A DNA stretch of 64,000 bases from a virus (IMGVR_UViG_3300032220_001356:26726-90725), one strand, 5' to 3'; shown: positions 3,083 through 19,807, counted from the stretch's first letter. The notes: generated by a model not told the origin, from the sequence alone. Translations and numbers: made by a program.

Positions 3083-4316
3083 AATTCTTACTCTGAGCGA
3101 CCACCCTTTCTCTCCTTCTGGCGTTGCTCATATGTCCAAAAATATTATTGAAGGTATGTTGGCTACCGGAAAGTATCAATTTATATCTTTTGGTGGTGCT
3201 ATCAAACATCAAGACTATCGACCACAAAAAACCGAACAATGGAAAGATGATTGGGTTATTTTTCCAGTTGATGGATATGGTTCGCAAGAGATGATTCGTT
3301 CTGTTCTGAGAACAGAACGTCCAGATATTATATGGTTTATGACTGACCCTCGTTTTTGGGGATGGTTATGGCAAATGGAAAACGAAATTAGACCAAATGT
3401 ACCTATGGTGTACTACCATGTTTGGGATAATTATCCATATCCAACATTTAATAGAAAGTTTTATCTTTCAAATGACCATATTGCAACCATTTCAAAACTT
3501 TCAGATGATATTGTTGCAAATGTAGCACCAGAAGTTGAAAGAACTTATGTTCCACACGCTGTTGACACAAATATCTTCAAAAGACTTTCGGAACAAGAAA
3601 TAGAAAAGTTTAAAAAAGAAACTCTCAATATTCAAGACGATAGATTTATTTTCTTCTGGAACAATAGAAACGCAAGACGCAAACAATCTGGTTCTGTTAT
3701 GTGGTGGTTTGCTGAATTTTTGAAGAAAACAAATAAAAAAGCAACTCTTATTATGCATACCGAAGTTAAAGATCAAAACGGACAAGATTTGGTTGCTATT
3801 ATGAACGAATTAGGGCTTACAAATAGAGAAATTCTTTTTTCTCAACAAAAGATGCCACCACAAAATCTAGCTTACTTTTATAATTTAGCAGATGCAACAA
3901 TTAACATCTCAGACGCAGAAGGCTTTGGACTTGCAACTCTTGAATCTCTTGCTTGTGAAACACCAATCATTGTTACAAAAACTGGTGGACTACAAGACCA
4001 AATTAGAAATGAAAAAGGAATTTTTGGAATTGAAATAGAACCATCATCAAGAGCAGTAATTGGTTCACAAGATGTACCATTTATTTATGAAGACAGAATC
4101 AGCCAAGAACAATTTGTTAGTGCTTTAGATACTTTTACAAATATTCCTAAAGAACAAAGAAAAACAATTGGACAACTTGGTAGAGAACACGTTATGAGTA
4201 ATTTTAACTTCGCTGATTTTATTAAGCGTTGGGATAATATATTTACTGACATTTATACCAATAAGGGCTCTTGGCCCAACAAATCATACAAAGCTTGGGA
4301 ATTGAAGGAAATCTAA
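3069..4316 (+). CDS. GT4-family glycosyltransferase
   Basis: SDHPFSPSG N-terminus, VPHAVD, NRNARRK, EGFGLATLESLACETPII. Confidence 0.9.
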   Translation: MKKIKILTLSDHPFSPSGVAHMSKNIIEGMLATGKYQFISFGGAIKHQDYRPQKTEQWKDDWVIFPVDGYGSQEMIRSVLRTERPDIIWFMTDPRFWGWLWQMENEIRPNVPMVYYHVWDNYPYPTFNRKFYLSNDHIATISKLSDDIVANVAPEVERTYVPHAVDTNIFKRLSEQEIEKFKKETLNIQDDRFIFFWNNRNARRKQSGSVMWWFAEFLKKTNKKATLIMHTEVKDQNGQDLVAIMNELGLTNREILFSQQKMPPQNLAYFYNLADATINISDAEGFGLATLESLACETPIIVTKTGGLQDQIRNEKGIFGIEIEPSSRAVIGSQDVPFIYEDRISQEQFVSALDTFTNIPKEQRKTIGQLGREHVMSNFNFADFIKRWDNIFTDIYTNKGSWPNKSYKAWELKEI

Positions 4317-6280
4317 TGAAAAAGAAAATATTAGTAACAGGTCCAGCACTTACTGCCTCTGGATATGGCGAACAATCTAGATTTGCATTGAGAGCACTAC
4401 GTTCAAGAGAAGATTTATTCGATATTTATCTTGCTGCTACTCCTTGGGGACAATGTGGCTGGATTCATGAAGATAACGAAGAAAGAGCATGGTTAGATAG
4501 TTTAATTATTAAAAATGCTCAGTACAATCAAGCTTCTAATGGACAACCACAATATGATATGTCGTTGCAAATTTCAATTCCCAACGAATGGAAAAAGCTA
4601 GCACCAATTAATATTGGATATACAGCAGGTATTGAAACTAATAAGATTTCTCCTCATTGGATTCAACCATCCAATCAAATGGATAAAATTATTGTTGTAT
4701 CTAACTTTGCAAAGAAAGGATTTGAAAACGGAGTCTATACTGCCACAGATCAAAGAACAGGTCAACAAATCCAAAACTTTAGATGCAATGCACCAATAGA
4801 GGTAGTTAATTACCCTGTTCGTCGCTTTGAATCAAGTGAGTTAGAACTAAATCTAACAACAGATTTTAATTTCCTTGTCGTCGCTCAAGGAGGACCAAGA
4901 AAGAATCTAGCAAATACACTCAAATGGTTTGTGGAAGAATTTAAAAACGATGAAAACGTTGGTTTAATTTGCAAGACTCATACTGCTGGTTCTTCTCAAA
5001 TTGATCGAGAAATGACAACGAATGCAATCAAGAATATCCTTGCAGAGCACACAGATAAGAAATGCAAAGTATACGTCCTCCACGGCGATATGAGCGAAGC
5101 AGAAATGGCAGGGCTCTATACCCATCCAAAAGTAAAAGCGTTGCTCTCGTTGTCTCACGGAGAGGGTTTTGGGCTTCCAATATTTGAGGCAGCATACTAC
5201 GGACTTCCAGTTATCACGACTGAGTGGTCTGGTCCTATGGACTTTATGTATTGTCCAAATAAAGAAGGTAAAGTTAAACCACACTTTGCAAGAGTTGATT
5301 TTACGCTTGGACCAATCCAACAAGAAGCAGTTTGGCAAGGTGTATTAGAAAAAGATACAATGTGGGCTTTCCCAAATCATCTTTCTGCCAAAGAAGCAAT
5401 GAGAGAAGTTTATAAGAATCACGATAGATTCCGTGGTCAAGCAAAACGTCTTGCTGCTCATGTTGAAAAACAATTTTCAAATGACAAAATGAACGAATTA
5501 TTTGTTCAACAAGTATATGGTAAAAAAGTAGAAAAATTTGATATCAATAGTCTACCAAAAATTTCATTAATTTCTTCTGTTTATAATTCAGATGAATATA
5601 TCGAACAGTTTATGGAAGATATTACAAGACAATCAATCTTTAAAGATAAATGTGAGTGGATTATTATCAATGCAAATTCTCCCGGCAATGAAGAAGAAGT
5701 TATTATGCGTTATGTTAACAAATATCCAAACATAATATACAAGCGTCTTGATTCGGACCCCGGTATTTATGCTACTTGGAATATGGCAATTAAAATGTCT
5801 ACAGGAGAGTTTATAACAAACGCAAATACTGACGATAGAAAATCACCAAACTCTTTGCTAGAACATGCAAAAACGCTTTTCCTAAATAAAGAAATCGACT
5901 TGGCATATTCCGATAGTTATATCACTCACGAAGCCAACAAAAGATGGGAAGATATAGATAAAAATAACTGTCAACGCTATAACTTTGAACAATTTTCACC
6001 CAAAGCAATGTTGAGAGGAAATTTGCCACATAACAATCCAATGTGGAGAAGAAGTTTGCACGAAAAATTTGGTTTTTTCAATGAAAACTATCGTTCTGCA
6101 TCAGATTGGGAATTTTGGCTAACTTGTGCTGCTGGTGGCTCCAAATTTATAAAGTGTGATATTCCATTAGGTATTTATTACTTCAATCCAAAAGGAATTT
6201 CAACAAATTTTGAAAACTTTTCTTGGAAACAAAAAGAAGAAGAGGAAATTTATACAAAATTTAGTAAGTTGATTAAATAA
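4316..6280 (+). CDS. GT4-GT2 fusion glycosyltransferase
   Basis: ATG overlaps the upstream TAA; SGYG, RKN and HGEGFGLPIFEAAYYGLPVI (GT4); then PKISLISSVYN, GIYATWN, NTDD, SASDWEFW (GT2). Confidence 0.9.
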   Translation: MKKKILVTGPALTASGYGEQSRFALRALRSREDLFDIYLAATPWGQCGWIHEDNEERAWLDSLIIKNAQYNQASNGQPQYDMSLQISIPNEWKKLAPINIGYTAGIETNKISPHWIQPSNQMDKIIVVSNFAKKGFENGVYTATDQRTGQQIQNFRCNAPIEVVNYPVRRFESSELELNLTTDFNFLVVAQGGPRKNLANTLKWFVEEFKNDENVGLICKTHTAGSSQIDREMTTNAIKNILAEHTDKKCKVYVLHGDMSEAEMAGLYTHPKVKALLSLSHGEGFGLPIFEAAYYGLPVITTEWSGPMDFMYCPNKEGKVKPHFARVDFTLGPIQQEAVWQGVLEKDTMWAFPNHLSAKEAMREVYKNHDRFRGQAKRLAAHVEKQFSNDKMNELFVQQVYGKKVEKFDINSLPKISLISSVYNSDEYIEQFMEDITRQSIFKDKCEWIIINANSPGNEEEVIMRYVNKYPNIIYKRLDSDPGIYATWNMAIKMSTGEFITNANTDDRKSPNSLLEHAKTLFLNKEIDLAYSDSYITHEANKRWEDIDKNNCQRYNFEQFSPKAMLRGNLPHNNPMWRRSLHEKFGFFNENYRSASDWEFWLTCAAGGSKFIKCDIPLGIYYFNPKGISTNFENFSWKQKEEEEIYTKFSKLIK

Positions 6281-7128
6281 TGAAAGTTATTTCGTATTCT
6301 TTATTTGAACCAAAACAACTACCTTTACATAGAGAGTGGGACAAGTGGAAAACAGAAAATCAAAGATATTGGTTTAATATACCAACAGTTATTTTATTAA
6401 ATAAAATTATATATCCAGATTATGTTTCAAAATTTTATTTGTCTCCAAATGTTTTTGAAAATCCTTTAAGTGAAATTTTTAATATTTTTGAAGTTGAATA
6501 TGAAGTAATCCAAAGAGAGTACAATTTTACCGAACCTGCTATCTGGAGAATGATGCCTCTTTGGGAAAGAGGCGTTGAAATATTCCATTCTAGAGATATT
6601 GATTCGTTAACCTCAGAAAATGAATATAGATATATAAAATCATTTGAAAATTCTGAATGTTGCGTTGGTACAATAAGAAGTCACGAAAATCATTATAATT
6701 TACCTTGTCGTATGCTTGCTGGTCTTTCTAGTTTTAAGCCAAACAAAATTCCTTTTTCTATAAAAGGTATTAATTTTGATATGTATTATTCTATGAAAGA
6801 CAGCAATTATGGTTCCGACCAAAACTTGTTAATTAAAACATTTACGTTCAACGAGGAATTTACAAAATCTAATTTTTTAGATTGTAAAATAGATAGACAA
6901 TTTAATAAGCAAGATTTTAATTGCTTAGAGGCAAACTTAAACAGCATAGAAATTAATAAAAAAATTGATACTATTTTCAAAAAAATAAAACAAACTACCA
7001 ACACTACTTGGCTTGGAGAACCCTGCGATTCTAGAGGAGAATTGTTAAATTATTTGCTTAATGAAAGAAATGATATTAGATTAAAAATTGCAAATAATAA
7101 AAATTTGTCACTATTTTACAAGGTTTAA
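6280..7128 (+). CDS. Uncharacterised glycosyltransferase-like protein
   Basis: MKVISYSLF, WRMMPL, SRDIDS (DxD), YGSDQ; embedded among GT genes. Confidence 0.5.
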   Translation: MKVISYSLFEPKQLPLHREWDKWKTENQRYWFNIPTVILLNKIIYPDYVSKFYLSPNVFENPLSEIFNIFEVEYEVIQREYNFTEPAIWRMMPLWERGVEIFHSRDIDSLTSENEYRYIKSFENSECCVGTIRSHENHYNLPCRMLAGLSSFKPNKIPFSIKGINFDMYYSMKDSNYGSDQNLLIKTFTFNEEFTKSNFLDCKIDRQFNKQDFNCLEANLNSIEINKKIDTIFKKIKQTTNTTWLGEPCDSRGELLNYLLNERNDIRLKIANNKNLSLFYKV

Positions 7129-7130
7129 CA

Positions 7131-7916
7131 ATGAGAATTTTTGTCGGCAAACAAACACCAGAACACAAGAGAGACACATCCAGAGAATTAATGGATATCT
7201 GGAAAGAAATGGGATTGTGTGAAATTATCGAAGGTGAAGTCGAGGATTATTTTATTTGGGCCAATGAGCCAAATGGAACTTTACTATACGAATATGACCG
7301 ATGGGATGTATTTCCTTTATTGCCACCTATATGGAAAAAAGGTTTATTTGCAGGTATGCAACATCCAAATGGAATGCCTTGGATATATTGGGGAAGAAGA
7401 CCAAAAATGTTGCATTCTAAAATAGAAAGCGGTTTAAAGTCATACGACACCAGACAAATTGAATCCATTTTTCTTGGAAAAGTAGAAAACGGCATTCAAT
7501 TAAACAATAGAACCACCCATGATTGGTCTAAATCAATAGAATTGTTTAGTATGCCAATTAAGATGGGAGATAGTTTTAATTGGCCTTTTACACAAGAAGA
7601 ATATTTAAACAAAGTCGCTGACTCTAAGTTTGGTCTTTGTCTTGCTGGATATGGTCCAAAATGCAATAGAGAAATAGAGTATTTAGGTCTTGGTGTTGTT
7701 CCAATTATTACTGAAAATGTATGTGTAAAATACCACGACCCACTTATTGAAGGTATGCATTACTTCAAAGTTTCAAACTCAGACCAAATAGATAAAACAA
7801 TCAAAGAATGTTCGAAAGATAGATGGGAATATATGTCTTATAATTGTAAAAAATGGTACAATAAAAACTGTTCCCCTCTTGGGTCTTTTGAAACAACATA
7901 CAATATATTAAAATAA
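7131..7916 (+). CDS. Exostosin/GT47-like glycosyltransferase
   Basis: EYLNKVADSKFGLCLAGYGPKCNREIEYLGLGVVPI C-terminal motif. Confidence 0.65.
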   Translation: MRIFVGKQTPEHKRDTSRELMDIWKEMGLCEIIEGEVEDYFIWANEPNGTLLYEYDRWDVFPLLPPIWKKGLFAGMQHPNGMPWIYWGRRPKMLHSKIESGLKSYDTRQIESIFLGKVENGIQLNNRTTHDWSKSIELFSMPIKMGDSFNWPFTQEEYLNKVADSKFGLCLAGYGPKCNREIEYLGLGVVPIITENVCVKYHDPLIEGMHYFKVSNSDQIDKTIKECSKDRWEYMSYNCKKWYNKNCSPLGSFETTYNILK

Positions 7917-8842
7917 TGAAAAATTTAAAAGTTAATTTTGTTGATTTTTGGGATAATTTTGATAAAGTTGATAACTATTTTTTTCATTTGTTATCAAACA
8001 ACTATAATGTAGAAATTTCCGAAAATCCAGATGTTTTGTTCTTTTCAGTCGATTATGCAAAAAGAAAAGAAAGAGACAAATATGTTAATCATAATTGTAA
8101 AAAAGTCTTTTTTACTGGAGAGAACATAAGACCCAACTTTTTTGTTCCCGGTTCTGTAGAATATCCCAGATATAGCATAGGTAAATGCGATTTTTCTTTT
8201 TCTTTTGATAATATGAATTTTTATAAAAACTATAGATTACCATTATGGATTTTGTACATAAATTGGTTTAATGTTCCGCACAACGATAACAGGGACCAAT
8301 CTTATTTAATACCATTAGATAATATATTAAATAAACAATTTTTTAATCCAAATAAGTTTTGTAATTTTGTTTTTTCTAATAATCAAGGTAAAAGATTAGA
8401 CATTCTTAATCATCTTAAAAAATACAAAAACATTGATTGTGCTGGAAGATTAGAAAATAATGTAAACTTTTCTATTCTTGGTAGAGGTGACCAAAAATAT
8501 AAAATTGATTTTATAAAAAACTATAAGTTTACAATTGCAGCAGAAAACTCTAAAACCGATGGTTACACAACTGAAAAAATAATTCATCCTTTATCGGTTG
8601 GTAGTATACCAATTTACTGGGGTTCATCAACAGTAAATAATGATTTTAATAAACAATGCTTTATTAACGTTGATAGTTTTTCAAACCTTGATGAATTGGT
8701 AGAGTATGTTATATATGTTGATAATTCAAAACAAGAATATGAAAAAATAATCAATGCTCCAATTTTTCCAAATAATAAAATACCAGAACAATTCATGCCC
8801 GATTCAATATTAAAATACTTTGAGGATTACATACTATGCTAA
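7916..8842 (+). CDS. GT10 alpha-1,3/4-fucosyltransferase
   Basis: FFTGEN, KFCNFVFSN, YKFTIAAENS..GYTTEKI..GSIPIYWG. Confidence 0.88.
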   Translation: MKNLKVNFVDFWDNFDKVDNYFFHLLSNNYNVEISENPDVLFFSVDYAKRKERDKYVNHNCKKVFFTGENIRPNFFVPGSVEYPRYSIGKCDFSFSFDNMNFYKNYRLPLWILYINWFNVPHNDNRDQSYLIPLDNILNKQFFNPNKFCNFVFSNNQGKRLDILNHLKKYKNIDCAGRLENNVNFSILGRGDQKYKIDFIKNYKFTIAAENSKTDGYTTEKIIHPLSVGSIPIYWGSSTVNNDFNKQCFINVDSFSNLDELVEYVIYVDNSKQEYEKIINAPIFPNNKIPEQFMPDSILKYFEDYILC

Positions 8843-9516
8843 ATGTAGAAAAAGTTTATATTGCTCATTACACAAAACTTATTGAAAGAAAACAAAGATT
8901 AGATGGTATCTTAAGAGAAAATGGAATAAAAGCAGAATATGTTTTTGATTTTGATAAAGACGTATTGACTGATGACATAATAAAAGAATATTATGTTTGT
9001 GATGAACAAAGTTATAATAATACTATTTCAAAAATTTATAAAAATGGCTCATTTAGAAAACTTAACTTGGCAGAAATTTCACTAACTATTAAGCATTGTT
9101 ATATAATGAAAAAAATAAGTAATGAATGTAAGGATTATGCTTTGGTCTTAGAAGATGATGTAGTTTTTGAAGATAGTTTTGTTGATAAATTCAACGATTA
9201 TCTTTCTAAAACTCCAAACGATTGGGATGTTATTTTTTTGGGCAATTGCTGTGGTCTAAGAATTCCAAAAGAACAGATTGTCGAAGGAAAAGTTGCTTAT
9301 GTAAAACAACATCCAGCGTCTAAATGTACTGACTCATTTTTAATTAAGAAGGAATTGGCAGAAAAGTTATCAAAAACAATGAAGCCATTTAATACTATTT
9401 GCGATTGGGAATATTCGTATCAATTTTATTTACACAACGCAAAAGTTTATTGGTGGGAGCCTACATTGGTTACACAAGGTTCTGAAAATGGTCTTTATAA
9501 ATCGGTATTGCGATGA
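8836..9516 (+). CDS. GT25-family glycosyltransferase
   Basis: ERKQRL, EISLTIKH, ALVLEDD, WDVIFLG, P.LVTQ. Confidence 0.8.
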   Translation: MLNVEKVYIAHYTKLIERKQRLDGILRENGIKAEYVFDFDKDVLTDDIIKEYYVCDEQSYNNTISKIYKNGSFRKLNLAEISLTIKHCYIMKKISNECKDYALVLEDDVVFEDSFVDKFNDYLSKTPNDWDVIFLGNCCGLRIPKEQIVEGKVAYVKQHPASKCTDSFLIKKELAEKLSKTMKPFNTICDWEYSYQFYLHNAKVYWWEPTLVTQGSENGLYKSVLR

Positions 9517-10634
9517 AAAAAATAAAAATTGCCTTTATTAAATTCGGCGGTTTATCTGCTGGTGGAACTGAAAAATACCTACAAACACTTGCTGCTAATT
9601 TACCAAAACAACAATTTGAGGTTGACTATTATTATACTGACGGCGTACCATTAGTTGGTAATAATTGGAAGCACCCAAATACTGACAAAGATAGAGTTGA
9701 ATATATGCTCTCTAATAACATAAATATTATTCATGTTAATTGTGAAGCAAGGGATGATAGATTTGGCCCACCATATGTTTGGATAAATTCAAATTTTTTT
9801 GAATTATTTAACTCAAAAAAATACGACATAATCCAAACAGGTCGTTCTGGGTATCAAGAATATCCTTTTTGTTCCATGAATAATGAAATATTCGTTGATA
9901 GTATACATGGCTATGGAGCACAGGGTATTGAAAAAAGAGATAACATTATTAAGACTGTTTTGCTTTCAAACACGCAAATAAAAAATTGGATTAGTAATGG
10001 TGGTGAAGAAAATAAAATTGTTTGTATTCCCCCTTTAATAGAGTTTCCAAAAAAACCTTTTATTTCACTAAGAAAGCAACTTAATATTAATGAAGATGTG
10101 TTTATTTATGGAATGCATCAAGGCAATAGAGAAGATATTTTCTCTGACATTCCACTTCAAGCATACAAACAAATAGAAAATGAAAAAACTTTGTTTTTAA
10201 TGTTAGGTGGAGCACAAAAATATAGAAATCAAGCGCAACAATTGAATATAAAAAATATAAAATTTTTAGATTTCAATGGTGATTCAAAATACATTAATGA
10301 TTTTGTTTATACACTAGATGTTTTTTCACACGGTAGGTTTGATGGTGAAGTATGCTCTGCGGCAATTATTGAAGCGTTATATCATGGCAAGCCAATTATT
10401 AGCCACCCAGCAATTAATAATGGTCATTTTGAGCAAATTGATGGTTGTGGTTTTATAGCACATTCTATTGATGAATATTCTAAAAAAATGCAACTTCTTT
10501 TTGACAACAAACAGATATATGATATATTGACAATGAACTGTTTATTAAAATATAATAATGTTTATAGTTTTGAAAAAAGTATAGACAAATACATCTCTTT
10601 ATACAAGGAAATTGTTTATGAAAGAAACATATAG
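9513..10634 (+). CDS. GT4-like glycosyltransferase
   Basis: AGGTEK N-terminal loop; LDVFSHGRFDGEVCSAAIIEALYHGKPII. Confidence 0.8.
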   Translation: MKKIKIAFIKFGGLSAGGTEKYLQTLAANLPKQQFEVDYYYTDGVPLVGNNWKHPNTDKDRVEYMLSNNINIIHVNCEARDDRFGPPYVWINSNFFELFNSKKYDIIQTGRSGYQEYPFCSMNNEIFVDSIHGYGAQGIEKRDNIIKTVLLSNTQIKNWISNGGEENKIVCIPPLIEFPKKPFISLRKQLNINEDVFIYGMHQGNREDIFSDIPLQAYKQIENEKTLFLMLGGAQKYRNQAQQLNIKNIKFLDFNGDSKYINDFVYTLDVFSHGRFDGEVCSAAIIEALYHGKPIISHPAINNGHFEQIDGCGFIAHSIDEYSKKMQLLFDNKQIYDILTMNCLLKYNNVYSFEKSIDKYISLYKEIVYERNI

Positions 10635-11199
10635 TCAATATATCTCAAATTATTTGGAAGAAGTTGTTCTAATTGCTAACAAAATTTCAAAAGATAATCT
10701 TTTGGGTTTTGTAAATGAAATAAAAAATCTTAAAAATTCACAAGGAAGATTGTTTATTTTTGGTGTTGGTGGTAGTGCTGCCAATGCTTCACACGCTGTT
10801 AATGATTTTAGAAAAATTTTAAATATTGAAACTTATTCTCCATTAGATAATGTTTCTGAATTAACAGCAAGAATAAACGACGAAAGTTGGGATGTAAGTC
10901 TGGTAAATTGGCTAAAAGTATCAAAACTCAATAAATCAGATGCAATTTTAATTTTTTCTGTTGGTGGTGGCTCTGATACTACATCTAAAAACTTAGTTAA
11001 AGTTATGGAATATGCAAAACTTAATAATTGCAAAATTCTTTCCGTTGTTAGTAGAGATGGTGGATATGCCAAACAATTATCTGATGTATGTGTTATGATA
11101 CCTGTGTTTGCTGACAACAGAATCACGCCACACGCTGAAGAATGGCAAGCAGTAGTGTGGCATATGATAGTTAGTTGCATTTCTAATGTTGAAGGATAA
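10618..11199 (+). CDS. SIS-domain phosphosugar isomerase (GmhA-like)
   Basis: RLFIFGVGGSAANASH, TARIND, FSVGGG..S.NL, RDGG, HAEEWQAVVWH. Confidence 0.85.
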   Translation: MKETYSQYISNYLEEVVLIANKISKDNLLGFVNEIKNLKNSQGRLFIFGVGGSAANASHAVNDFRKILNIETYSPLDNVSELTARINDESWDVSLVNWLKVSKLNKSDAILIFSVGGGSDTTSKNLVKVMEYAKLNNCKILSVVSRDGGYAKQLSDVCVMIPVFADNRITPHAEEWQAVVWHMIVSCISNVEG

Positions 11200-11203
11200 T
11201 AAA

Positions 11204-11905
11204 ATGAAAATCAAGATTTACTCAGATGGTGCCAATATCAACGAAATGATTGAGGCATATAACAACAAAACAGTTCAAGGATTTACAACTAACCCAACTC
11301 TCATGAGTAAGGCTGGTATTAAGGATTATAAAGGGTTTGCTATAGATGTTTTAAATAATATTAAAGATATGCCAATTTCATTTGAAGTATTTTCTGATAC
11401 TTTTGATGAAATGTATAAACAAGCAAAAATTTTAAATTCTCTTGGCGATAATGTATACGTTAAAATTCCAATTATGAACACAAAAGGGAAGCCTTCATAT
11501 AAACTCATAAATAAACTAGATTCTGAAAAAGTAAAATTAAATATTACTGCTGTTTTCACAACGAATCAAGTTTCTCGTATTCTAAAAAACGTCGATGGAA
11601 CTACTGCTCATATTATATCCATTTTTGCAGGTAGAATAGCAGATACAGGTATCGACCCAACTCCCATTATGAAAAAGAGTCTAAAGAAAATAAAATCACA
11701 TAGTCAATTATTACAACTTTTATGGGCTAGTCCAAGAGAGGTGCTAAATATTTATCAAGCCGATAAAATTGGATGCGATATTATTACAGTAACTCCTTCT
11801 ACATTAGACAAACTTTCGTTATCTAATAAAGACTTGAATGAATTTTCTAGAGAAACAGTTGAAATGTTTTACAATGACGCTTTAAAGTCGGGATTTTCTC
11901 TATGA
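11204..11905 (+). CDS. tal: Transaldolase (short TalC/MipB-type)
   Basis: GFTTNPTL, ISFEV, YVKIP (Schiff-base Lys), NITAVF, SIFAGRIAD, LWASPRE. Confidence 0.92.
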   Translation: MKIKIYSDGANINEMIEAYNNKTVQGFTTNPTLMSKAGIKDYKGFAIDVLNNIKDMPISFEVFSDTFDEMYKQAKILNSLGDNVYVKIPIMNTKGKPSYKLINKLDSEKVKLNITAVFTTNQVSRILKNVDGTTAHIISIFAGRIADTGIDPTPIMKKSLKKIKSHSQLLQLLWASPREVLNIYQADKIGCDIITVTPSTLDKLSLSNKDLNEFSRETVEMFYNDALKSGFSL

Positions 11906-12879
11906 TTATTGCTAAAGCACCACTTAGAATAACTCTTGCCGGAGGAGGTACTGATTTACCAGATTTTTATACAAAGTTTGGCGGCTCCGTTACAAGTATG
12001 GCAATTGACAAACATATTTTTGTTAGTTTTAAGAGAAATATATTAGATAATTTGGTTAGGCTTCGTTATTTAAAAACTGAAGAAGTAGAAACTATTAACA
12101 AACTAAGCAATGAAAGAGCGAGAGAATCATTGAAACATTTTAAAATTTTTGACCAATGTGAAATTACTAGTATTGGAGATTTACCTGCAAGCACAGGCTT
12201 GGGTTCATCTGGTAGTTATATTGTTTCATTAATTACTGCTATTCAACAATATAAAAAACTAAATATGTCCAAACATGACATTGCTGAATTGGCTTGTAAA
12301 ATTGAAATGGAAGAATTAAATGAACCAGTTGGTAAACAAGACCAGTTTATTGCTTCTTATGGTGGTATAAAAACATTTAATATCGATACCAACGGTAATG
12401 TAGAAGTTGAAAATTTTGATTTTAGTTCTGATGATTTAAAACATTTCATACAAAATAATAGAATTTACTATACTGGAATTCAAAGAAGTGCTTCTGAAGT
12501 TTTAAAATCTCAAAAAACAAATCAAACAAACTTTGAAGATAAAATGAAAAAAATAAGTGATTTAAGTTTAAAGTTTGTTACTGCATTAAAACAAAAAAAT
12601 TATGATTATTATGGTCAATTGTTAAATGAACATTGGATGCAAAAAAAAGCACTTTCTCCTTGTATGACAACCAATAATGTTGAACAAATTTATTATGATT
12701 TGATGAATAATAATAAAATATTTGGTGGCAAAATTATTGGTGCAGGCGGTGGAGGATTTTTGTTGGTATATTGTAATAAAGACCATTCATATGTAGATAA
12801 TTATATGCAATCAAAGGGTATGCTTAGATTGGACTATAATGTTGATTTTGATGGTGCAAATATTGTTTATGAGTCATAA
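11902..12879 (+). CDS. GHMP-family sugar-phosphate 1-kinase (HddA-like)
   Basis: APLRITLAGGGTD, PASTGLGSSG, GKQDQF, GGKIIGAGGGG. Confidence 0.9.
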   Translation: MIIAKAPLRITLAGGGTDLPDFYTKFGGSVTSMAIDKHIFVSFKRNILDNLVRLRYLKTEEVETINKLSNERARESLKHFKIFDQCEITSIGDLPASTGLGSSGSYIVSLITAIQQYKKLNMSKHDIAELACKIEMEELNEPVGKQDQFIASYGGIKTFNIDTNGNVEVENFDFSSDDLKHFIQNNRIYYTGIQRSASEVLKSQKTNQTNFEDKMKKISDLSLKFVTALKQKNYDYYGQLLNEHWMQKKALSPCMTTNNVEQIYYDLMNNNKIFGGKIIGAGGGGFLLVYCNKDHSYVDNYMQSKGMLRLDYNVDFDGANIVYES

Positions 12880-13582
12880 CATGGTTTATTGCTTCGATAT
12901 AGATAACACCATTTGTATTACCAATGGAAATGATTATAAAAATGCTGTTCCAATCAAAAAGGCAGTAGACGAAATCAACAAGTTATATCAAGATAATAAT
13001 ATAATCAAACTCTTTACAGCCAGAGGTACAACATCTAAAATTGATTGGACAGAGTTTACTATAAATCAACTTTCACAATGGGGTTTAAAATATCATGAAC
13101 TAATCATGAATATTAAGCCTAGTTTTGATTTGTTAATTGATGATAGAGCAATTAATGCAAATGATTGGCTAAAAACAATTGATAAAAAAGTAGGTTTTTT
13201 GGCTGGTTCCTTTGACTTAATACATCCGGGCTATATTTTAATGTTTCAAGATGCCAAAAAGTATTGTAATCATCTAATAGTCGGATTACAGACTGACCCA
13301 ACTATGGATAGACCAACTAAAAATAAACCAGTTCAAACAATAGAAGAGAGAAAAATCATTCTTTCTTCAATTAAATATATTGATGAAATTATTATATATG
13401 AAACTGAAAAAGATTTATATAATTTGTTGAAAAATAACAAAATTGATATTAGAATATTAGGTAGCGATTATGAAGATAAGATATACAATGGTTATGATTT
13501 AAATATACCTGTTTATTTTCATAAAAGAAATCACGATTGGTCTACAACTAATTTAAAAAATAAAATAAGGAATTCATTATGA
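12869..13582 (+). CDS. HAD phosphatase fused to a class-I (HxGH-type) nucleotidyltransferase
   Basis: FDIDNT, FTARG, KP, IDD (HAD); GSFDLIHPGY, IVGLQTDP, KP...EER, LGSDY, STT (TagD/HldC-like); start at 12869 or 12881. Confidence 0.85.
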   Translation: MSHNMVYCFDIDNTICITNGNDYKNAVPIKKAVDEINKLYQDNNIIKLFTARGTTSKIDWTEFTINQLSQWGLKYHELIMNIKPSFDLLIDDRAINANDWLKTIDKKVGFLAGSFDLIHPGYILMFQDAKKYCNHLIVGLQTDPTMDRPTKNKPVQTIEERKIILSSIKYIDEIIIYETEKDLYNLLKNNKIDIRILGSDYEDKIYNGYDLNIPVYFHKRNHDWSTTNLKNKIRNSL

Positions 13583-14484
13583 AAAAAGCAATTGTTACAG
13601 GCGGTAATGGTTTTATTGGTAGTAACTTAGTTGATAATTTGGTAGATTTAGGAATCGAAACTATTGTTATCGATAATAATTCTGCTGAATGTAACGAAAG
13701 ATTCTATTTCAATGAAAAAGCAAAAAATTACAAATATGACATTTGTGATTATGATAAAATTCTTCCCTTATTTAAGGGCGTTGATGTTGTATTTCATTTA
13801 GCAGCAGAATCCAGAATTCAACCATCAATTCTTAATCCAACATATGCAACAAAAGTAAATGTTTTAGGAACTTGTAATATTTTACAAGCCGCAAGAGAAA
13901 ATAACGTAGACAGAGTTATTTATTCTTCAACGTCTGCTGGTTATGGCTTGAAAAATTCGCCCCCTCTCAGAGAAGATATGCCAAAAGATTGTCTAAATCC
14001 ATATTCTGTTACCAAGTGTGCTGGCGAAGAACTTTGTGTTATGTACAATAACTTGTTTGGTCTTAAAACTATCTCACTCAGATATTTTAACGTATATGGT
14101 AATAGAGAACCAGTTAAGGGGCAATATGCGCCAGTAGTTGGTTTGTTTTTGAGACAATTTAGAAACAACGAAGCAATGACCGTTGTTGGTGATGGACTAC
14201 AAAGAAGAGATTTTACAAATGTGCAAGATGTAGTTCAAGCAAATATTCTTGCCGGTACTACTACAAATTTACAAGCATTTGGAGAAGTTTATAATGTAGG
14301 TACTGGTATTAACCATTCTGTACTGGAATTGGCACAATTTATTGGTGGTAAATACGAATTTATTGATTCACGAATTGGTGAAGCACGAAACACATTAGCA
14401 GATAATAGTAAAATTAAAAATTATCTAAATTGGCAACCAAAAGTTGATTTTCTTGATTATCTTAAAAAGGAACTTAATAAATGA
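13579..14484 (+). CDS. NAD-dependent nucleotide-sugar epimerase/dehydratase (SDR)
   Basis: TGGNGFIG, FHLAA, YSSTS, PYSVTK, LRYFNVYG, GDGLQRRDF. Confidence 0.92.
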   Translation: MKKAIVTGGNGFIGSNLVDNLVDLGIETIVIDNNSAECNERFYFNEKAKNYKYDICDYDKILPLFKGVDVVFHLAAESRIQPSILNPTYATKVNVLGTCNILQAARENNVDRVIYSSTSAGYGLKNSPPLREDMPKDCLNPYSVTKCAGEELCVMYNNLFGLKTISLRYFNVYGNREPVKGQYAPVVGLFLRQFRNNEAMTVVGDGLQRRDFTNVQDVVQANILAGTTTNLQAFGEVYNVGTGINHSVLELAQFIGGKYEFIDSRIGEARNTLADNSKIKNYLNWQPKVDFLDYLKKELNK

Positions 14485-15245
14485 TTTCAGATGATAATAT
14501 AGTTTTTAATGAAAATTATAAATGTAATTTTTGTACTGATGGTCGTGCATATCAAACGGTTGAAAATTATGCAAGATATAGTTTTCCATATTTTTCAAAT
14601 AAAAAAGATGATGAAGTAAAAACTATTTTAGTTATTGGAGCGTATGAAGGGCAAGAAATAACTTATTATTTGCATAAATACAAAAATGCAACAATTTACG
14701 CTTTTGAACCAATTGAGAGCGTGTTCAATAGATTAGTTAATACTTTTGGAAGCATTGAGAGAGTTAAACTTTACAATTTTGCAGTTGCAGATTTTACAGG
14801 AGAAAGTAATTTTTATATTTTATCTAGTAATTTAAATAATACTGCCGATGGTAGCAGTAGTTTGCTGGAATTCCACGCAGATAAATTGGGGCACAACTAT
14901 AAAATTGGCAATATTGTAAAAGTAAAAACAATTAAATTAGATGATATTGAAGAGTTGAGCAACAAAGACATAGATTATATGCAAGTTGATGTTCAAGGTG
15001 CCGAACTTTTAGTGCTAAAAGGTTCAACTAAAATTTTAAAAAATGTAAAAACATTAATGTTAGAAGTTAAAACCGAAGAATACACCGAAGCATGGGACGC
15101 ACCAGACTTTCAAATGTACAAAGGTATGTGTTATCTACAAGATTTAATTGACTTTCTTAAATATTTTAATATTAAACCATATTTAGTTGGCGTAGATAAC
15201 GAAAGTAAAAACGGACAAGGAAATTCATTTTGGATTAGGAGTTAA
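14481..15245 (+). CDS. FkbM-family methyltransferase
   Basis: IGAYEG, YAFEP, SSSLL, IKLDD, VDVQGAELLVLKG. Confidence 0.85.
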   Translation: MISDDNIVFNENYKCNFCTDGRAYQTVENYARYSFPYFSNKKDDEVKTILVIGAYEGQEITYYLHKYKNATIYAFEPIESVFNRLVNTFGSIERVKLYNFAVADFTGESNFYILSSNLNNTADGSSSLLEFHADKLGHNYKIGNIVKVKTIKLDDIEELSNKDIDYMQVDVQGAELLVLKGSTKILKNVKTLMLEVKTEEYTEAWDAPDFQMYKGMCYLQDLIDFLKYFNIKPYLVGVDNESKNGQGNSFWIRS

Positions 15246-15246
15246 A

Positions 15247-15933
15247 ATGAACGTAGAAGAAATGATAGACAAAATTTTGTTTGATACAAAAAATAAAGCA
15301 AAAAGAATTGCTAAATGGGATTATCATCGTGAATATCTTACTGCTTGTTGTAGTGAAGTAACTATTGACGGTTTGTGGATGGAGTTTGGTGTATATAGAG
15401 GTAGAACAATTTCAACTATTGCCGAACAAACAACTAGCGATGTTTATGGGTTTGATTGTTTTGAGGGATTGCCAGAATTTTGGGATAATGAAAATCCAAA
15501 AGGTGTATATAGCGTTGGAGGAGAAATCCCATTAGGCGCTATCGATGGGCCAGCAGATATAAATCCCGGCATGTACGAACCAGTACCAACAAGAGTTATG
15601 AAGCCTTGGGCTAAAAATATTAAACTTGTAAAAGGTCTTTTTGAAGATAGTTTACCAATATTTTTACAACAGCATACCGAACAAGCAGCATTTATCAATA
15701 TTGATAGTGACTTGTATAGTTCTGCTAAAACTGTTCTTACACATTTAAAAGATAGAATTAAGCATGGCACTATTATAACGTTTGACGAACTTGTAGATTA
15801 TCCTACTTTCAGAGAGCATGAAATAAAAGCATTTGCAGAATTTTTGATTGATACTGGATTTTCTTATGAAGCATTATACCATCAATCGTTGGCTAATTAT
15901 AGTCAAGCTTGTTTTAGAATAATTAAGGAGTAA
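15247..15933 (+). CDS. TylF/MycF-like sugar O-methyltransferase
   Basis: EFGVYRG, GFDCFEGLPE, VKGLFEDSL, IDSDLYSS, FDE. Confidence 0.8.
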   Translation: MNVEEMIDKILFDTKNKAKRIAKWDYHREYLTACCSEVTIDGLWMEFGVYRGRTISTIAEQTTSDVYGFDCFEGLPEFWDNENPKGVYSVGGEIPLGAIDGPADINPGMYEPVPTRVMKPWAKNIKLVKGLFEDSLPIFLQQHTEQAAFINIDSDLYSSAKTVLTHLKDRIKHGTIITFDELVDYPTFREHEIKAFAEFLIDTGFSYEALYHQSLANYSQACFRIIKE

Positions 15934-15936
15934 TTT

Positions 15937-16584
15937 ATGTTTGAAAGACAACAAGGTTCAAAAACAAAAACCAAAAACCAAGAAACACATATTTTAGTTT
16001 ACGATAGACATTTGGGTGGTTGTTCACTTACTGGCGATGGTGCTACATATTATCCAAGAATGTGGACATATATGGTTAATAAATTTAGCTTTAAATCTGC
16101 TATTGATATTGGATGTGGTGCAGGACATTCTACAGAATATTTTCAACATTTAGGATTAGAAATACATGGTGTAGAAGGCTGTAAGGAAGCAGCAGAAAAT
16201 TGTCTAATTGATAAAAAATTTATTAAAATACATGATTACGAAAATGATGGTGCTTATGTACCGCATAAAGATTATGATTTAGGGTGGTCATGTGAATTTG
16301 TTGAACACGTTGAAAAAAATTGTATGCAAAACTTTTTTGAAACATTTAAAAAATGTAAATATTTAGCTATTACTTATGCTTATCCCGGTCAAGGTGGGCA
16401 CCATCACGTTAATGAACAGCCAGAACAATTTTGGTTAAATGAAATATCAAAAATTGGATTTACATATGATGCCGAAACAACCGCAGAATTAAGAGAAATA
16501 GCTAGACAAGATTGCGAAGTTCACTCTCCTTTTTACACTTCACATTTTATTAATAGAGGCTTGTTTTTTAAAAGAAATTATTAG
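15937..16584 (+). CDS. Class I SAM-dependent methyltransferase
   Basis: IDIGCGAG, GVEG, CEFVEHV, PGQGGHHHVNEQ. Confidence 0.82.
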   Translation: MFERQQGSKTKTKNQETHILVYDRHLGGCSLTGDGATYYPRMWTYMVNKFSFKSAIDIGCGAGHSTEYFQHLGLEIHGVEGCKEAAENCLIDKKFIKIHDYENDGAYVPHKDYDLGWSCEFVEHVEKNCMQNFFETFKKCKYLAITYAYPGQGGHHHVNEQPEQFWLNEISKIGFTYDAETTAELREIARQDCEVHSPFYTSHFINRGLFFKRNY

Positions 16585-16640
16585 AAATTTTTTTCATAAT
16601 AATATATGATATTATAAAAAAAATAACAAAGAGAAAATAA

Positions 16641-17561
16641 ATGATTTTAGTTACTGGTGGCTCTGGAATGGTTGGAAAAGCTTTAATGCAATCTATTCCA
16701 GATGCTTTTTATATATCTTCTGACAATTGTAATTTAACAAGCGAAAACGACACCAAATATATGTTTAAGCACTTAAAGCCAACGAAGGTAATCCATCTTG
16801 CTGCAAAAGTCGGTGGTGTAAAAGCAAACATGGAACAACTTGGTGAATTTTATACAGATAACATAAGAATTAATACAAACGTTTTACACTATTCTATGGT
16901 TTATAAAGTTGAAAAAGTTCTTTCCCTATTAAGTACCTGTATATACCCAGATAATGTCACATATCCTCTTACAGAAGAACAAATACATAATGGGCCACCA
17001 CACGAATCTAATTTTGCTTATGCATATGCAAAAAGAATGATTGATATTCAATCAAGAGCATATAGAAAGCAATATGGCTGCAATTTTATTACTGCTGTGC
17101 CAAACAATTTATTTGGAGAGGATGATAATTTTGATTTAAATAACTCTCATGTTATTCCTGCAATTATTAGAAAAATGTATGAAGCAAAACAAAAAAATGA
17201 AGATGTTGTTTTGTGGGGGGATGGAACTCCGTTGCGTGAATTTACATATTCAAAAGATTTGGCACAAACATTGATGTTTCTTCTTGATAACTATGATGGT
17301 GAAAATCCAATTAATGTTGGAAACACTAACAATTACTCAATTAAGCAAATTGCAGAATTAATAGCATTAAAATTAAAATATAAAGGAAATATTATTTGGG
17401 ACACTTCCAAGCCAAGTGGGCAGTTTAAAAAACCTTCTGATAATTCAAAATTAATTGAACTTGGATTTGATAAAAATGGTTATACTAATATAGATATTGC
17501 CTTGACAAATACTTGTAATTGGTTTACATTAAATTATCCAAATATTAGAGGAATTAAATGA
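16641..17561 (+). CDS. fcl: GDP-L-fucose synthase
   Basis: TGGSGMVG, HLAAKVGG, LSTCIYP, YAYAK, SHVIPA, WGDGTPLREF. Confidence 0.93.
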   Translation: MILVTGGSGMVGKALMQSIPDAFYISSDNCNLTSENDTKYMFKHLKPTKVIHLAAKVGGVKANMEQLGEFYTDNIRINTNVLHYSMVYKVEKVLSLLSTCIYPDNVTYPLTEEQIHNGPPHESNFAYAYAKRMIDIQSRAYRKQYGCNFITAVPNNLFGEDDNFDLNNSHVIPAIIRKMYEAKQKNEDVVLWGDGTPLREFTYSKDLAQTLMFLLDNYDGENPINVGNTNNYSIKQIAELIALKLKYKGNIIWDTSKPSGQFKKPSDNSKLIELGFDKNGYTNIDIALTNTCNWFTLNYPNIRGIK

Positions 17562-18538
17562 AAACTGCGCTAATAACAGGCGTAACGGGACAAGATGGTT
17601 CCTATTTAGCAGAATTATTATTATCTAAAAACTACAAAGTTATTGGTCTTAAAAGAAGAACATCTTTGTTGTGTACAGATAGAATTGATAAATTTTACAA
17701 TCATCCAAATTTTGTACTTGAATATTTTGAATTAGATGACCCATCTTGCATGTATAGAATTTTAAGCAAATATAAACCCGATGAAGTTTATAATCTTGCT
17801 GCTCAATCGCACGTTAGAGTATCGTTTGATATTCCACAAAGTACGATTAATACAATTGTGATGGGCACTTTAAATCTTGTTGAAGCAGTACGAAATGTAT
17901 GTCCACATGCAAAATTTTATCAAGCATCTTCATCTGAAATGTTTGGAGACAATCCAAATTTTCCCTATACTGAAGAAAGTAAGTTAACGCCAGCATCACC
18001 ATATGCAAATGCAAAAGTATTTGCTCATAATTTAATGCGTAATTATAGAATGTCTTACAATATGTTCGCTTGTTCTGGTATTTTATTTAATCACGAATCT
18101 CCAAGGAGAGGCGAAACATTTGTAACAAGAAAAATTACTTTAGCAGCAGCAAAAATTAAATTTGGGCTACAAGATAAATTGTATTTAGGAAACTTAGATG
18201 CTGTAAGAGATTGGGGATTTGCTGGCGATTATGTCGAAGCAATGTGGCTTATGTTACAACAAGAAAAAGCCGACGACTACGTAATCGCAACTGGCAAAGC
18301 ATATTCGGTTAGAGAGTTTTTAAACTTAGTTTTTGAGCACGCCGAATTGACAGTACAAAAATATGTCGAAACTGATACAAGGTTGTTTAGACCACATGAA
18401 GTTCCATTTCTTTTGGGTGATTCTACAAAAGCACAAAATTTACTAAACTGGAAACCAAAAACAGATTTAAAAACATTAGCTACCATGATGTATGAAGAAG
18501 ACTTTAATAATATAAAAAAACAAATGGATAAAAAATGA
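17558..18538 (+). CDS. gmd: GDP-mannose 4,6-dehydratase
   Basis: TGVTGQDGSYLAE, NLAAQSHV, QASSSE, SPYANAK, GILFNHESPRRGETFVTRKI. Confidence 0.97.
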   Translation: MKTALITGVTGQDGSYLAELLLSKNYKVIGLKRRTSLLCTDRIDKFYNHPNFVLEYFELDDPSCMYRILSKYKPDEVYNLAAQSHVRVSFDIPQSTINTIVMGTLNLVEAVRNVCPHAKFYQASSSEMFGDNPNFPYTEESKLTPASPYANAKVFAHNLMRNYRMSYNMFACSGILFNHESPRRGETFVTRKITLAAAKIKFGLQDKLYLGNLDAVRDWGFAGDYVEAMWLMLQQEKADDYVIATGKAYSVREFLNLVFEHAELTVQKYVETDTRLFRPHEVPFLLGDSTKAQNLLNWKPKTDLKTLATMMYEEDFNNIKKQMDKK

Positions 18539-19368
18539 AAAAAATTGGTATAGTTGGTAATGGTTTTGTGGGTAATGCAATATATCAAAATTTAAAAAAT
18601 TCTTGTAATGTTAAAGTATACGATATTGATAAAAATAGATGCTTTAATCAATTAGATGAAATTTATAAATGTGAAATCATATTTGTATGCTTACCAACGC
18701 CTATGATTAGTAGCGAAGGTGGAAAATGTAATTTAAGTATAATAAACAATTTCTTTCAAAATGTACCTAAATTTTGTAAATCTTTATTTGTTATAAAATC
18801 AACCGTACCTATTGGCACTACTAAACAAATAAAAGAAACAAGAAAAGATTTGATTATTTGCCATAATCCAGAGTTTTTAACCGCAATAAATGCAGTAGAA
18901 GATTTTAAAAATTCAGATAGGAATATAATAGGCGGTGACGAAAACGAAGTTAAACCACTTTATGATTTGTTTATTGATATGTTTCCAAATTCAAAAATTT
19001 TAGTCGTTAGTTCAAATGAATCAGAAACTATAAAATATTTTTCTAACACATTTTTAGCAACAAAAGTTGCATTTTTTAACATTATGCACGATATTAGTGT
19101 AAAATATGATATGAATTATCTTTCTCTAGTTGAAGGTGTTTGTAGCGATAATAGGATAGGGCACTCACATTCAAGAGTCCCCGGACCAGATGGAGATAAG
19201 GGTTTTGGTGGTTCTTGTTTTCCAAAAGATATAAACTCATTAATATATATTTTGAAAGAAAATAATGTTAATTATCAAATATTTAATGATATTTGGAATT
19301 ATAATAAAAGTATAAGAAAAAATTGGGATTGGTCAAACAATCCTTCTGCCGTTAATAATAAGGAGTAA
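18535..19368 (+). CDS. UDP-glucose/GDP-mannose dehydrogenase family protein (short form lacking the C-terminal domain)
   Basis: GNGFVG, CLPTP, IKSTVP, NPEFL, E.IKYFSN, GFGGSCFPKD; only 277 aa. Confidence 0.88.
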   Translation: MKKIGIVGNGFVGNAIYQNLKNSCNVKVYDIDKNRCFNQLDEIYKCEIIFVCLPTPMISSEGGKCNLSIINNFFQNVPKFCKSLFVIKSTVPIGTTKQIKETRKDLIICHNPEFLTAINAVEDFKNSDRNIIGGDENEVKPLYDLFIDMFPNSKILVVSSNESETIKYFSNTFLATKVAFFNIMHDISVKYDMNYLSLVEGVCSDNRIGHSHSRVPGPDGDKGFGGSCFPKDINSLIYILKENNVNYQIFNDIWNYNKSIRKNWDWSNNPSAVNNKE

Positions 19369-19370
19369 AA

Positions 19371-19547
19371 ATGCAACTTTCAAATCAAGCAGTAGGTGCC
19401 CTCATGTTGGCACTTCAAAAGTCACTTATGGAACAAGCAGATATCGTTCCAATGTTAAAAGATTTTGTGTTCATAACATCAGAAGATGGTCTTGTCGTTA
19501 CCAACCCACCAGTTGTACAATTTGAACAACCATCAGTAGATGAATAA
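19371..19547 (+). CDS. Small hypothetical protein (58 aa; below the ORF-track cut-off)
   Basis: AAGGAG RBS; MQLSNQAVGALMLALQKSLMEQADIVPMLKDFVFITSEDGLVVTNPPVVQFEQPSVDE; TAATG overlap with the next gene. Confidence 0.8.
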   Translation: MQLSNQAVGALMLALQKSLMEQADIVPMLKDFVFITSEDGLVVTNPPVVQFEQPSVDE

Positions 19548-19807
19548 TGCCAAGATATTCTTACATTTGTCAGCAATGTGAGAATCAAGTAGAAGCCTTT
19601 CATCCAAGCGATGAAAGGCTTTCTTTTTGTGACAAATGCGAAACCGATTCTCTTAAAAAAGTTCTCTCAATCCCAACAATTATTAAAAATAATAGTGTTA
19701 ATCCCTCGACAAATCGCAAAACAGGGGATATAGTAAAAGAGAAAATAGAAGAATTTAGACAAAATCTAAAAGAACAAAAACAGGAATTGTTGGATAAGAA
19801 GATATGA
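19547..19807 (+). CDS. FmdB-type zinc-ribbon protein
   Basis: MPRYSYICQQC...CDKC...LKKVLS. Confidence 0.8.
   Translation: MPRYSYICQQCENQVEAFHPSDERLSFCDKCETDSLKKVLSIPTIIKNNSVNPSTNRKTGDIVKEKIEEFRQNLKEQKQELLDKKI

Follow-up and report, generated by a model that had tools for sequence, protein, structure and literature searches.

A transaldolase and its partner isomerase may open a phage pathway to a nucleotide-activated higher-carbon sugar

INTRODUCTION

Why would a phage keep a transaldolase gene inside a row of sugar-activation genes? The question is raised by five plus-strand genes at 10612 to 14484, each overlapping the next, in a 64-kb stretch of viral DNA (IMGVR_UViG_3300032220_001356:26726-90725), referred to here as the window. 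The window is the 3′ part of a 90.7-kb IMG/VR virus record that is estimated to be ~50% complete. Genes for PhoH, a baseplate wedge protein, and a T4-type large terminase (TerL, 42% identical to that of Flavobacterium phage immuto) identify the source as a T4-like myovirus. Its GC content is low (~30%), and all the long open reading frames (ORFs) of the window lie on the plus strand.

A first-pass annotation had described the five genes as a coupled set encoding a SIS isomerase, a transaldolase, a GHMP kinase, a HAD/nucleotidyltransferase protein, and an SDR epimerase, and all five were confirmed. It had also taken the transaldolase to be a pathway enzyme that feeds a C7 or C8 nucleotide sugar. 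The pathway role was upheld, since the enzyme belongs to a family other than that of cyanophage TalC and co-occurs with one type of isomerase in viruses and in cells. We propose that a nucleotide-activated higher-carbon sugar could be made by the products of these five genes alone, with the transaldolase as the committed first enzyme; in our estimate there is an even chance that the product is of the octose type.

RESULTS

The transaldolase is distinct from talC and overlaps the gene of its partner isomerase

The transaldolase gene (11186 to 11905, plus strand; TAL_FSA E value, 1.9e-40) overlaps the end of the SIS gene by 14 nt. Its product passes the cut-off of the TIGR02134 family (314 bits against 282), whereas on the talC/FSA model TIGR00875 it reaches 90.5 bits, far below the cut-off of 245.95 and below the 222 and 316 bits of a genuine phage talC-type gene and a bacterial one, respectively. 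Identity to cyanophage TalC is ~30%. The Asp, Glu, and Schiff-base Lys residues of the Thermoplasma acidophilum enzyme are conserved in the alignment, and SIFAGR aligns to SPFVGR of that enzyme, with Phe, not Tyr, at the position of Phe132. Fructose-6-phosphate (F6P) aldolase was considered as an identity for this gene and rejected on account of this discriminating residue. In a tree from a quick search, the support values of which are provisional, the cassette transaldolases, including the window copy, form one clade (Shimodaira-Hasegawa-like approximate likelihood ratio test, 89) apart from the housekeeping and talC-type enzymes, and the ten phage copies fall together (87). The family scores and the low identity to TalC bear out the earlier suggestion that this is a pathway enzyme and not a cyanophage-style pentose-phosphate auxiliary gene.

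The SIS gene (10612 to 11199, plus strand, with an ATG at 10618; SIS_2 E value, 6.3e-06) encodes a predicted ketose-phosphate isomerase of the GmhA fold. By its scores it is not a GmhA equivalog: the gmhA model TIGR00441 gives 51 bits against a curated cut-off of 209.45, and solved GmhA structures match at just 20 to 28 bits. His61, Asp65, Glu176, and His184 align with the metal-binding and catalytic His, Glu, Gln, and His of Burkholderia pseudomallei GmhA, so that Glu is changed to Asp and Gln to Glu, and the Ser/Thr-rich phosphate loop of GmhA is remodelled to SVGGG, with an insertion. Two signature motifs, NASH[MA]VND and SELTAR[TI]ND, are present as NASHAVND and SELTARIND. We use the name SIS-A for this distinct SIS subfamily that is paired with a transaldolase.

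Two further observations concern the junction of these genes. The SIS proteins of the window (at 11150 to 11199) and of four related viral contigs (L102 to L105) end ~10 residues early; owing to the overlap with the transaldolase gene, the C-terminal tail HPxLQxNxTKW, conserved in the family, is missing. Separately, a 410-aa protein from an ENA metagenome (P0051) is a natural fusion of SIS_2 and transaldolase domains and is 61% identical to the window transaldolase.

The gene pair is widespread in bacteria and archaea

A scan of species-representative genomes with the two SIS-A motifs gave at least 600 stretches, 592 of them confirmed, with SIS genes 48 to 60% identical to that of the window. 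Neighborhoods were counted in the best 80 of these stretches, which are bacterial and archaeal loci from many phyla. A cassette-type transaldolase was found within 9 kb of SIS-A in ~64 of the 80 loci; the other neighbors were HAD (55 loci), GHMP kinase (54), SDR (52), NTP_transferase (at least 36), and Gfo/Idh/MocA (30) genes. Carriers of the pair include Lachnospiraceae, Chloroflexota, Planctomycetota, Bradyrhizobium, Patescibacteria, a Micrarchaeota archaeon, Coxiellaceae, Legionellaceae, and a Pelagibacteraceae single-cell genome, among others. In evolution, SIS-A and its transaldolase act as a single unit, and the notion that the cassette is a peculiarity of phages has to be given up, since its first two genes belong to this very widespread pair. 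No description of the pair was found in the literature on bacteria or phages.

The organization of the cellular cassettes varies. Plasmid matches were found on Lawsonia intracellularis plasmid 3 (LI_RS06875-LI_RS06835) and on the Rhizobium jaguaris megaplasmid pRCCGE525c, in operons of the order SIS-HAD-transaldolase with a GHMP kinase, an NTP_transferase, a UGDH-family dehydrogenase, SDRs, and a Gfo/Idh/MocA oxidoreductase; SIS matches on Streptomyces plasmids lay in unrelated glycogen/galT contexts. We refer to the layout with an NTP_transferase as type I. In the type II layout, found in Bradyrhizobium, Gallionella, and the SAR11 cell, a fusion of a cytidylyltransferase with PfkB takes the place of the kinase and the NTP_transferase. 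Several cassettes have a TalC-like transaldolase (25 to 33% identity) instead of the usual one, so that recruitment of a transaldolase took place more than once. As side observations on type II, a short transketolase-N-like gene lies just past the last cassette gene in the Pelagibacteraceae genome (L085) and in Bradyrhizobium manausense (G001) (G005:C3:6870-7427 and G001:C2:186908-187642), hinting at an extra two-carbon extension or a branching of the sugar, and a NUDIX gene is found inside this type of cassette (L085 and contig C2 of G001).

Five carrier genomes were examined for other sources of the same precursors. Another intact transaldolase was present in three of them (in the complete genome it is of the TIGR00875 type, with 316 bits), and transketolase-family genes were present in all five, so sedoheptulose-7-phosphate (S7P) should be obtainable without the cassette enzyme. 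Since carriers usually own a housekeeping transaldolase and a transketolase, S7P supply appears to be a weak reason for the cassette gene. A closer GmhA-like gene stood alongside SIS-A in two of the five genomes. Among the recurrent cassette neighbors, which comprised GT2 transferases and known tailoring enzymes only, there were no linked genes for the supply of ribose-5-phosphate (R5P) or erythrose-4-phosphate (E4P) that could have pointed to the acceptor.

Viral cassettes have two alternative front ends

Viral relatives were collected in two scans. The scan seeded with the transaldolase gave 15 viral loci (L002 to L016), 12 of which have a compact module of the order nucleotidyltransferase-(TylF methyltransferase)-SIS-GmhB-like HAD-transaldolase-GT4-GHMP kinase, often next to a T4-type RNase H gene; the other three end just upstream of the transaldolase gene. 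The idea that the compact modules and the window have a dedicated glycosyltransferase in common was rejected, as BLAST gave no similarity. The scan seeded with the HAD-nucleotidyltransferase fusion gave four viral contigs (L102 to L105, one of 159 kb) in the gene order of the window, with 50 to 60% protein identity. Overall, the transaldolase was seen in 16 of 16 viral loci showing SIS-A (12 compact modules and these four contigs), in addition to the window.

The second scan also gave twelve viral loci with a different, 166-aa isomerase, which has a GmhA-like SSSGNS or SSGGES phosphate loop. A nearby transaldolase was found in none of the twelve, one contig having a TalC-type gene 18 kb away. 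Most of these loci show a homologous kinase (26 to 36% identity), eight show a full HxGY-type fusion (47 to 53%), and most show an SDR gene (mostly 48 to 56%), each of these genes being seen in eight to ten of the twelve. Thus, among viruses, whether a transaldolase is present depends strictly on which isomerase is encoded. An example of the second front end is the cultured cyanomyovirus SynMITS9220M01, in which genes 204 to 207 encode, without a gap in the set, the kinase, the isomerase, an HxGY fusion, and the SDR; its genome announcement lists genes of this type as heptose related and talC separately (PMC7378029). Related kinase, isomerase, and nucleotidyltransferase genes are found in S-CAM1/3, P-TIM68, and P-SSM2/5. 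In its history, the window cassette resembles a heptose cassette of the cyanophage type (kinase, isomerase, HAD-nucleotidyltransferase fusion, and SDR) in which the bacterial pair of transaldolase and SIS-A has taken the place of the isomerase.

No record in the cultured-phage collection searched has the SIS type of the window. Transaldolase matches occurred in 444 phage records, and a TIGR02134-like transaldolase was present in just two records of the collection, both from Staphylococcus phages (OR844993.1, at 1795 to 2496, and MG543995.1). These two genes are unannotated and 49 to 52% identical to that of the window; they may be host-derived DNA in the assemblies.

The downstream genes encode a kinase, a phosphatase-nucleotidyltransferase fusion, and an SDR

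The third gene of the cassette (11902 to 12879, plus strand; GHMP_kinases_N E value, 1.1e-14) follows the transaldolase gene with an ATGA overlap and encodes a putative HddA-like sugar-phosphate anomeric kinase. The GHMP glycine-rich motif is intact. The best NCBIfam match is HddA (NF049969), at 132 bits against a cut-off of 600, and the closest solved structures are the heptose-7-phosphate kinases 4n3o and 3k85 (105 bits). Identity to the cassette kinases of Lawsonia and Rhizobium is 33 to 38%.

The fourth gene (12839 to 13582, plus strand; CTP_transf_like E value, 2.7e-11) overlaps the kinase stop codon, its true start being probably at 12869 or 12881. It encodes a fusion of a small HAD phosphatase domain (residues ~15 to 112) and an HxGH-fold nucleotidyltransferase domain (residues ~113 to 247). 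Profile scores were 72 bits for rfaE_dom_II (cut-off, 181.5), 63 bits for TagD, and 25 bits for the EcbF-BcbF phosphatase, and the solved structures matched were 1coz and 9iqw. HAD motif I is DIDNT. The HxGH motif reads HPGY (13190 to 13220). Eleven related viral fusions have HxGY, as does SynMITS9220M01, whereas stand-alone phage versions have HxGH, and Tyr replaces the second His in every HAD-fused phage copy that shows the motif (L102 to L111, L116, L118, and L131). Because it is conserved across the fusion subfamily, a cultured cyanophage included, the Tyr at the fourth position is judged from these alignments to be a trait of that subfamily and not a sequencing error.

The last gene (13579 to 14484, plus strand; Epimerase E value, 3.9e-56) has an ATGA overlap with the fusion gene and encodes a member of the SDR nucleotide-sugar epimerase/dehydratase family with intact GxxGxxG and YxxxK motifs. 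It scored 153 bits for GalE and 121 bits for HldD (TIGR02197; cut-off, 274.6), both under the respective cut-offs, and is best described as a generic SDR. It is 38 to 39% identical to an SDR of a bacterial type II cassette, and in both types of viral cassette the gene after the fusion gene encodes an SDR, mostly with 48 to 59% identity (40% in L106). However, a 53% identical homologue in P-SSM2 (PSSM2_270) stands apart, with none of the other four cassette genes in the 14.5 kb examined around it. The SDR gene is present and coupled in the window, as had been suggested, but for this reason it appears to be less firmly a member of the cassette. In P-SSM2, the homologue lies in a glycan cluster (L130) together with a homologue of a window GT4 gene (PSSM2_263), ~34 kb from the isomerase, kinase, and fusion genes.

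The cassette resembles the lincosamide octose route in part

In lincomycin biosynthesis, the sugar genes have been assigned to a transaldolase (LmbR), an isomerase (LmbN), a phosphatase (LmbK), a kinase (LmbP), a nucleotidyltransferase (LmbO), an epimerase (LmbM), a dehydrogenase (LmbL), and an NAD(P) oxidoreductase (LmbZ) (PMC12945683, PMC4351081). Transaldolases are known to form octulose-8-phosphate from F6P and R5P, and LmbR does so from F6P or S7P and R5P (PMC5854111). The phage cassette resembles this GDP-octose route of Streptomyces lincolnensis and S. caelestis in the order of the chemistry and in the families for four of the five steps, followed by an SDR, a likeness that holds at the family level. 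The phage, too, encodes the four common families together: the dedicated transaldolase, the isomerase of the SIS type, the kinase of the GHMP type, and the HAD phosphatase. The proposal that the phage set mirrors the lmb set therefore stands for these four and fails for the nucleotidyltransferase, which is of the HxGH fold (cytidylyl/adenylyl type, reading HPGY) and not an NTP_transferase like LmbO or HddC; moreover, the phosphatase is an EcbF/BcbF-type HAD fused to it. The phage also differs in having no Gfo/Idh/MocA enzyme or aminotransferase and in carrying its genes in a glycan island, not in an antibiotic cluster. Bacterial cassettes have the same families as lmbR/N/K/P/O, and often those of lmbM/L/Z as well (SDR, UGDH-like, and Gfo/Idh/MocA).

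The bacterial cassettes share with the phage SIS-A (45 to 60% identity) and its motifs, a transaldolase of the same TIGR02134 clade (50 to 58% identity), and the kinase. They differ in activating the sugar by an NTP_transferase (type I) or the cytidylyltransferase-PfkB fusion (type II) and usually have extra UGDH, Gfo/Idh/MocA, and SDR genes, whereas the phage has a GHMP kinase with an HxGY nucleotidyltransferase, no Gfo/Idh/MocA gene, and only a short UGDH-like gene 4 kb downstream. The cyanomyovirus "heptose" cassette, known as such from annotation only, shares the GHMP kinase and, in SynMITS9220M01, an HxGY fusion (47.5% identity) with the SDR directly after it; it differs in the 166-aa isomerase and in having no linked transaldolase, talC being elsewhere.

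The heptose routes were compared in the same way. The GDP-heptose pathway (HddA/GmhB/HddC) follows the same logic of isomerase, anomeric GHMP kinase, phosphatase, and nucleotidyltransferase, but no phage protein reaches an equivalog cut-off of this pathway, there is no HddC-type NTP_transferase, and a transaldolase is present. In the case of the ADP-heptose pathway (HldE/HldD), the phage kinase is of the GHMP and not the PfkB type, and the domain II and HldD scores are below the cut-offs. The combination of an HddA-like GHMP kinase with an HxGH-fold nucleotidyltransferase is found in neither of these studied heptose routes nor in either bacterial layout. Finally, cyanophage talC, like the window gene, is carried by a phage, has the transaldolase/FSA fold, and shows the residues typical of a transaldolase; it belongs to another equivalog family and is unlinked to sugar-activation genes.

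The cassette lies in a soluble glycan island

The cassette is part of ~16 kb of plus-strand genes for soluble glycosylation proteins (3069 to 19368). The upstream part (3069 to 9516) encodes a GT4 protein, a GT4-GT2 fusion, two ORF products without a family match, a GT10 fucosyltransferase, and a GT25 protein. It is followed by a GT4-family glycosyltransferase gene (9513 to 10634; Glycos_transf_1 E value, 5.6e-07) that overlaps the SIS start and encodes a candidate transferase for the cassette product. The arrangement of GT4 next to SIS is also found in L102 to L105 (38 to 39% identity), and the same GT4 protein is 44% identical to PSSM2_263. The downstream part (14481 to 19368, plus strand) encodes FkbM, TylF, and class I methyltransferases, GDP-fucose synthase, GDP-mannose 4,6-dehydratase (Gmd, 432 bits, exceeding its cut-off), and a short UGDH-like protein. 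In total, the island has at least six glycosyltransferases, three methyltransferases, and GDP-fucose genes. No membrane-spanning or hydrophobic segments were found in the island proteins, and no flippase, polymerase, priming transferase, or other membrane export machinery was found among the island genes; nor was a PF00483 (NTP_transferase) protein found in the island.

Several side observations were made in this region. The 277-aa UGDH-family protein (18535 to 19368, plus strand), encoded ~4 kb downstream of the cassette, keeps the N-terminal GxGxxG motif and the catalytic-Cys motif GGSCFPKD but lacks the C-terminal nucleotide-sugar-binding domain; it is ~26% identical to UGDH-like genes of bacterial cassettes. 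There are no GATC sites within 5007 to 20073, a 15-kb stretch that coincides with the glycan island, compared to 79 in the whole window. Outside the island, a 227-aa protein encoded at 646 to 1329, between phoH and a PD-(D/E)XK nuclease gene, gave weak, subthreshold metallopeptidase-type matches (ATLF, 23 bits; Peptidase_M78, 16 bits).

DISCUSSION

The families and the synteny described above suggest the following pathway. The transaldolase would move the C3 dihydroxyacetone unit of F6P (or S7P) onto an aldose phosphate, most likely R5P, giving octulose-8-phosphate. SIS-A would then convert the ketose phosphate to an aldose phosphate, the GHMP kinase would phosphorylate C1, the small HAD domain would remove the terminal phosphate, and the fused HxGY nucleotidyltransferase would make the NDP-sugar. 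Judging from the fold of the nucleotidyltransferase, ATP or CTP is a more likely substrate than GTP, so an ADP- or CDP-sugar is preferred here over a GDP-sugar. The SDR would epimerize or otherwise tailor the product, and the soluble glycosyltransferases and methyltransferases of the island could use it to assemble, on an acceptor in the cytoplasm, a glycan that is methylated and contains fucose. The acceptor is placed in the cytoplasm because the whole island is soluble, and virion proteins are the most plausible candidates. The full version of this proposal, in which ADP- or CDP-octose made from F6P and R5P is used in a methylated, fucosylated glycan on the phage's own virion, is tentative, and we rate it somewhat short of an even chance.

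The most serious competitor is an NDP-heptose pathway, in which the transaldolase would just raise the supply of S7P (from F6P and E4P), SIS-A would be a divergent GmhA, and the product would be a variant of ADP-, CDP-, or GDP-glycero-manno-heptose. We consider this doubtful, though a real possibility. The best named matches of the cassette proteins are all heptose enzymes (gmhA, HddA, rfaE domain II, and HldD), and the structures matched include heptose-7-phosphate kinases and GmhA; however, all these named matches are far below the family cut-offs. The transaldolase looks ordinary, and genes that boost precursors are common in phages, but this one accompanies SIS-A in every viral locus that shows it and never the other phage isomerase, most of the carrier genomes examined have another transaldolase and all have transketolase-family genes, and E4P would be a scarce acceptor. 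Studied heptose clusters based on GmhA reportedly need no dedicated transaldolase. For these reasons, a C8 product seems somewhat more likely than a C7 product, but the support is indirect, and a number of points weigh against the octose proposal. The transaldolase is ~58% identical to Methylopumilus and Bdellovibrionales proteins named merely "transaldolase," TIGR02134 is the family that NCBI uses for the ordinary staphylococcal enzyme, and the window protein shows no sign of altered function. The 166-aa isomerase, which has no transaldolase beside it, scores 52 to 55 bits on the GmhA model and is as distant from it as SIS-A, so the lack of GmhA equivalog status cannot by itself separate C8 from C7, and the idea that a distinct SIS subfamily implies a distinct substrate is weakened. 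The fusion protein and the SDR mostly share 47 to 59% identity with their counterparts in the phage cassette that has no transaldolase and is annotated with heptose genes; since they are about half identical, the intermediates of both cassette types must be at least very similar. The departure from the LmbO-type guanylyltransferase, the effect that the fourth-position Tyr may have on activity, and the fact that we infer the virion acceptor also count on this side.

Readings other than octose or heptose are, taken together, unlikely. It is very improbable that the transaldolase serves pentose-phosphate metabolism in general, as an auxiliary gene in the manner of cyanophage talC, and merely has sugar genes for neighbors: transaldolase genes are indeed common in T4-like marine phages, but this one is of a different family, it overlaps both its neighbors, and its place beside SIS-A is kept across viral copies that are just 45 to 52% identical and across many bacterial phyla, whereas phage talC genes sit away from sugar genes. 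A product of another length (a hexose or nonose formed on a different acceptor) is also quite improbable, as is a role of the sugar as a donor for DNA hypermodification. The logic of isomerase, kinase, phosphatase, and nucleotidyltransferase would fit any chain length, and the compact phage modules, with their single glycosyltransferase next to T4-type RNase H, could be taken to point to another target. However, F6P needs no dedicated transaldolase, and the window cassette lies among the many glycosyltransferase, methyltransferase, and GDP-fucose genes of the island. No gene of the thymidylate-synthase/hydroxymethylase family (PF00303) was found in the record or in four related viral records, one of them 86% complete, and a role in DNA modification is therefore without support.

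The octose proposal has consequences beyond this phage. Among species-representative genomes, the pair of transaldolase and SIS-A is present in more than 590 stretches, and among viruses in 19 contigs or more. With its GHMP kinase and an HxGY nucleotidyltransferase fused to a phosphatase, the cassette contributes a third mode of activating such sugars. If the ADP- or CDP-octose proposal is correct, this would be the first viral octose pathway. The phages offer a natural experiment in which the same downstream enzymes are found with two alternative front ends, and since the enzymes are small and soluble, the chain length can be tested directly in vitro. With these compact phage enzymes, the sugar that the pair produces in hundreds of bacterial species could then be identified. 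If that sugar is an octose, eight-carbon sugars would shift from a curiosity of the lincosamides to a common component of bacterial surface glycans and of the glycans made by phages.

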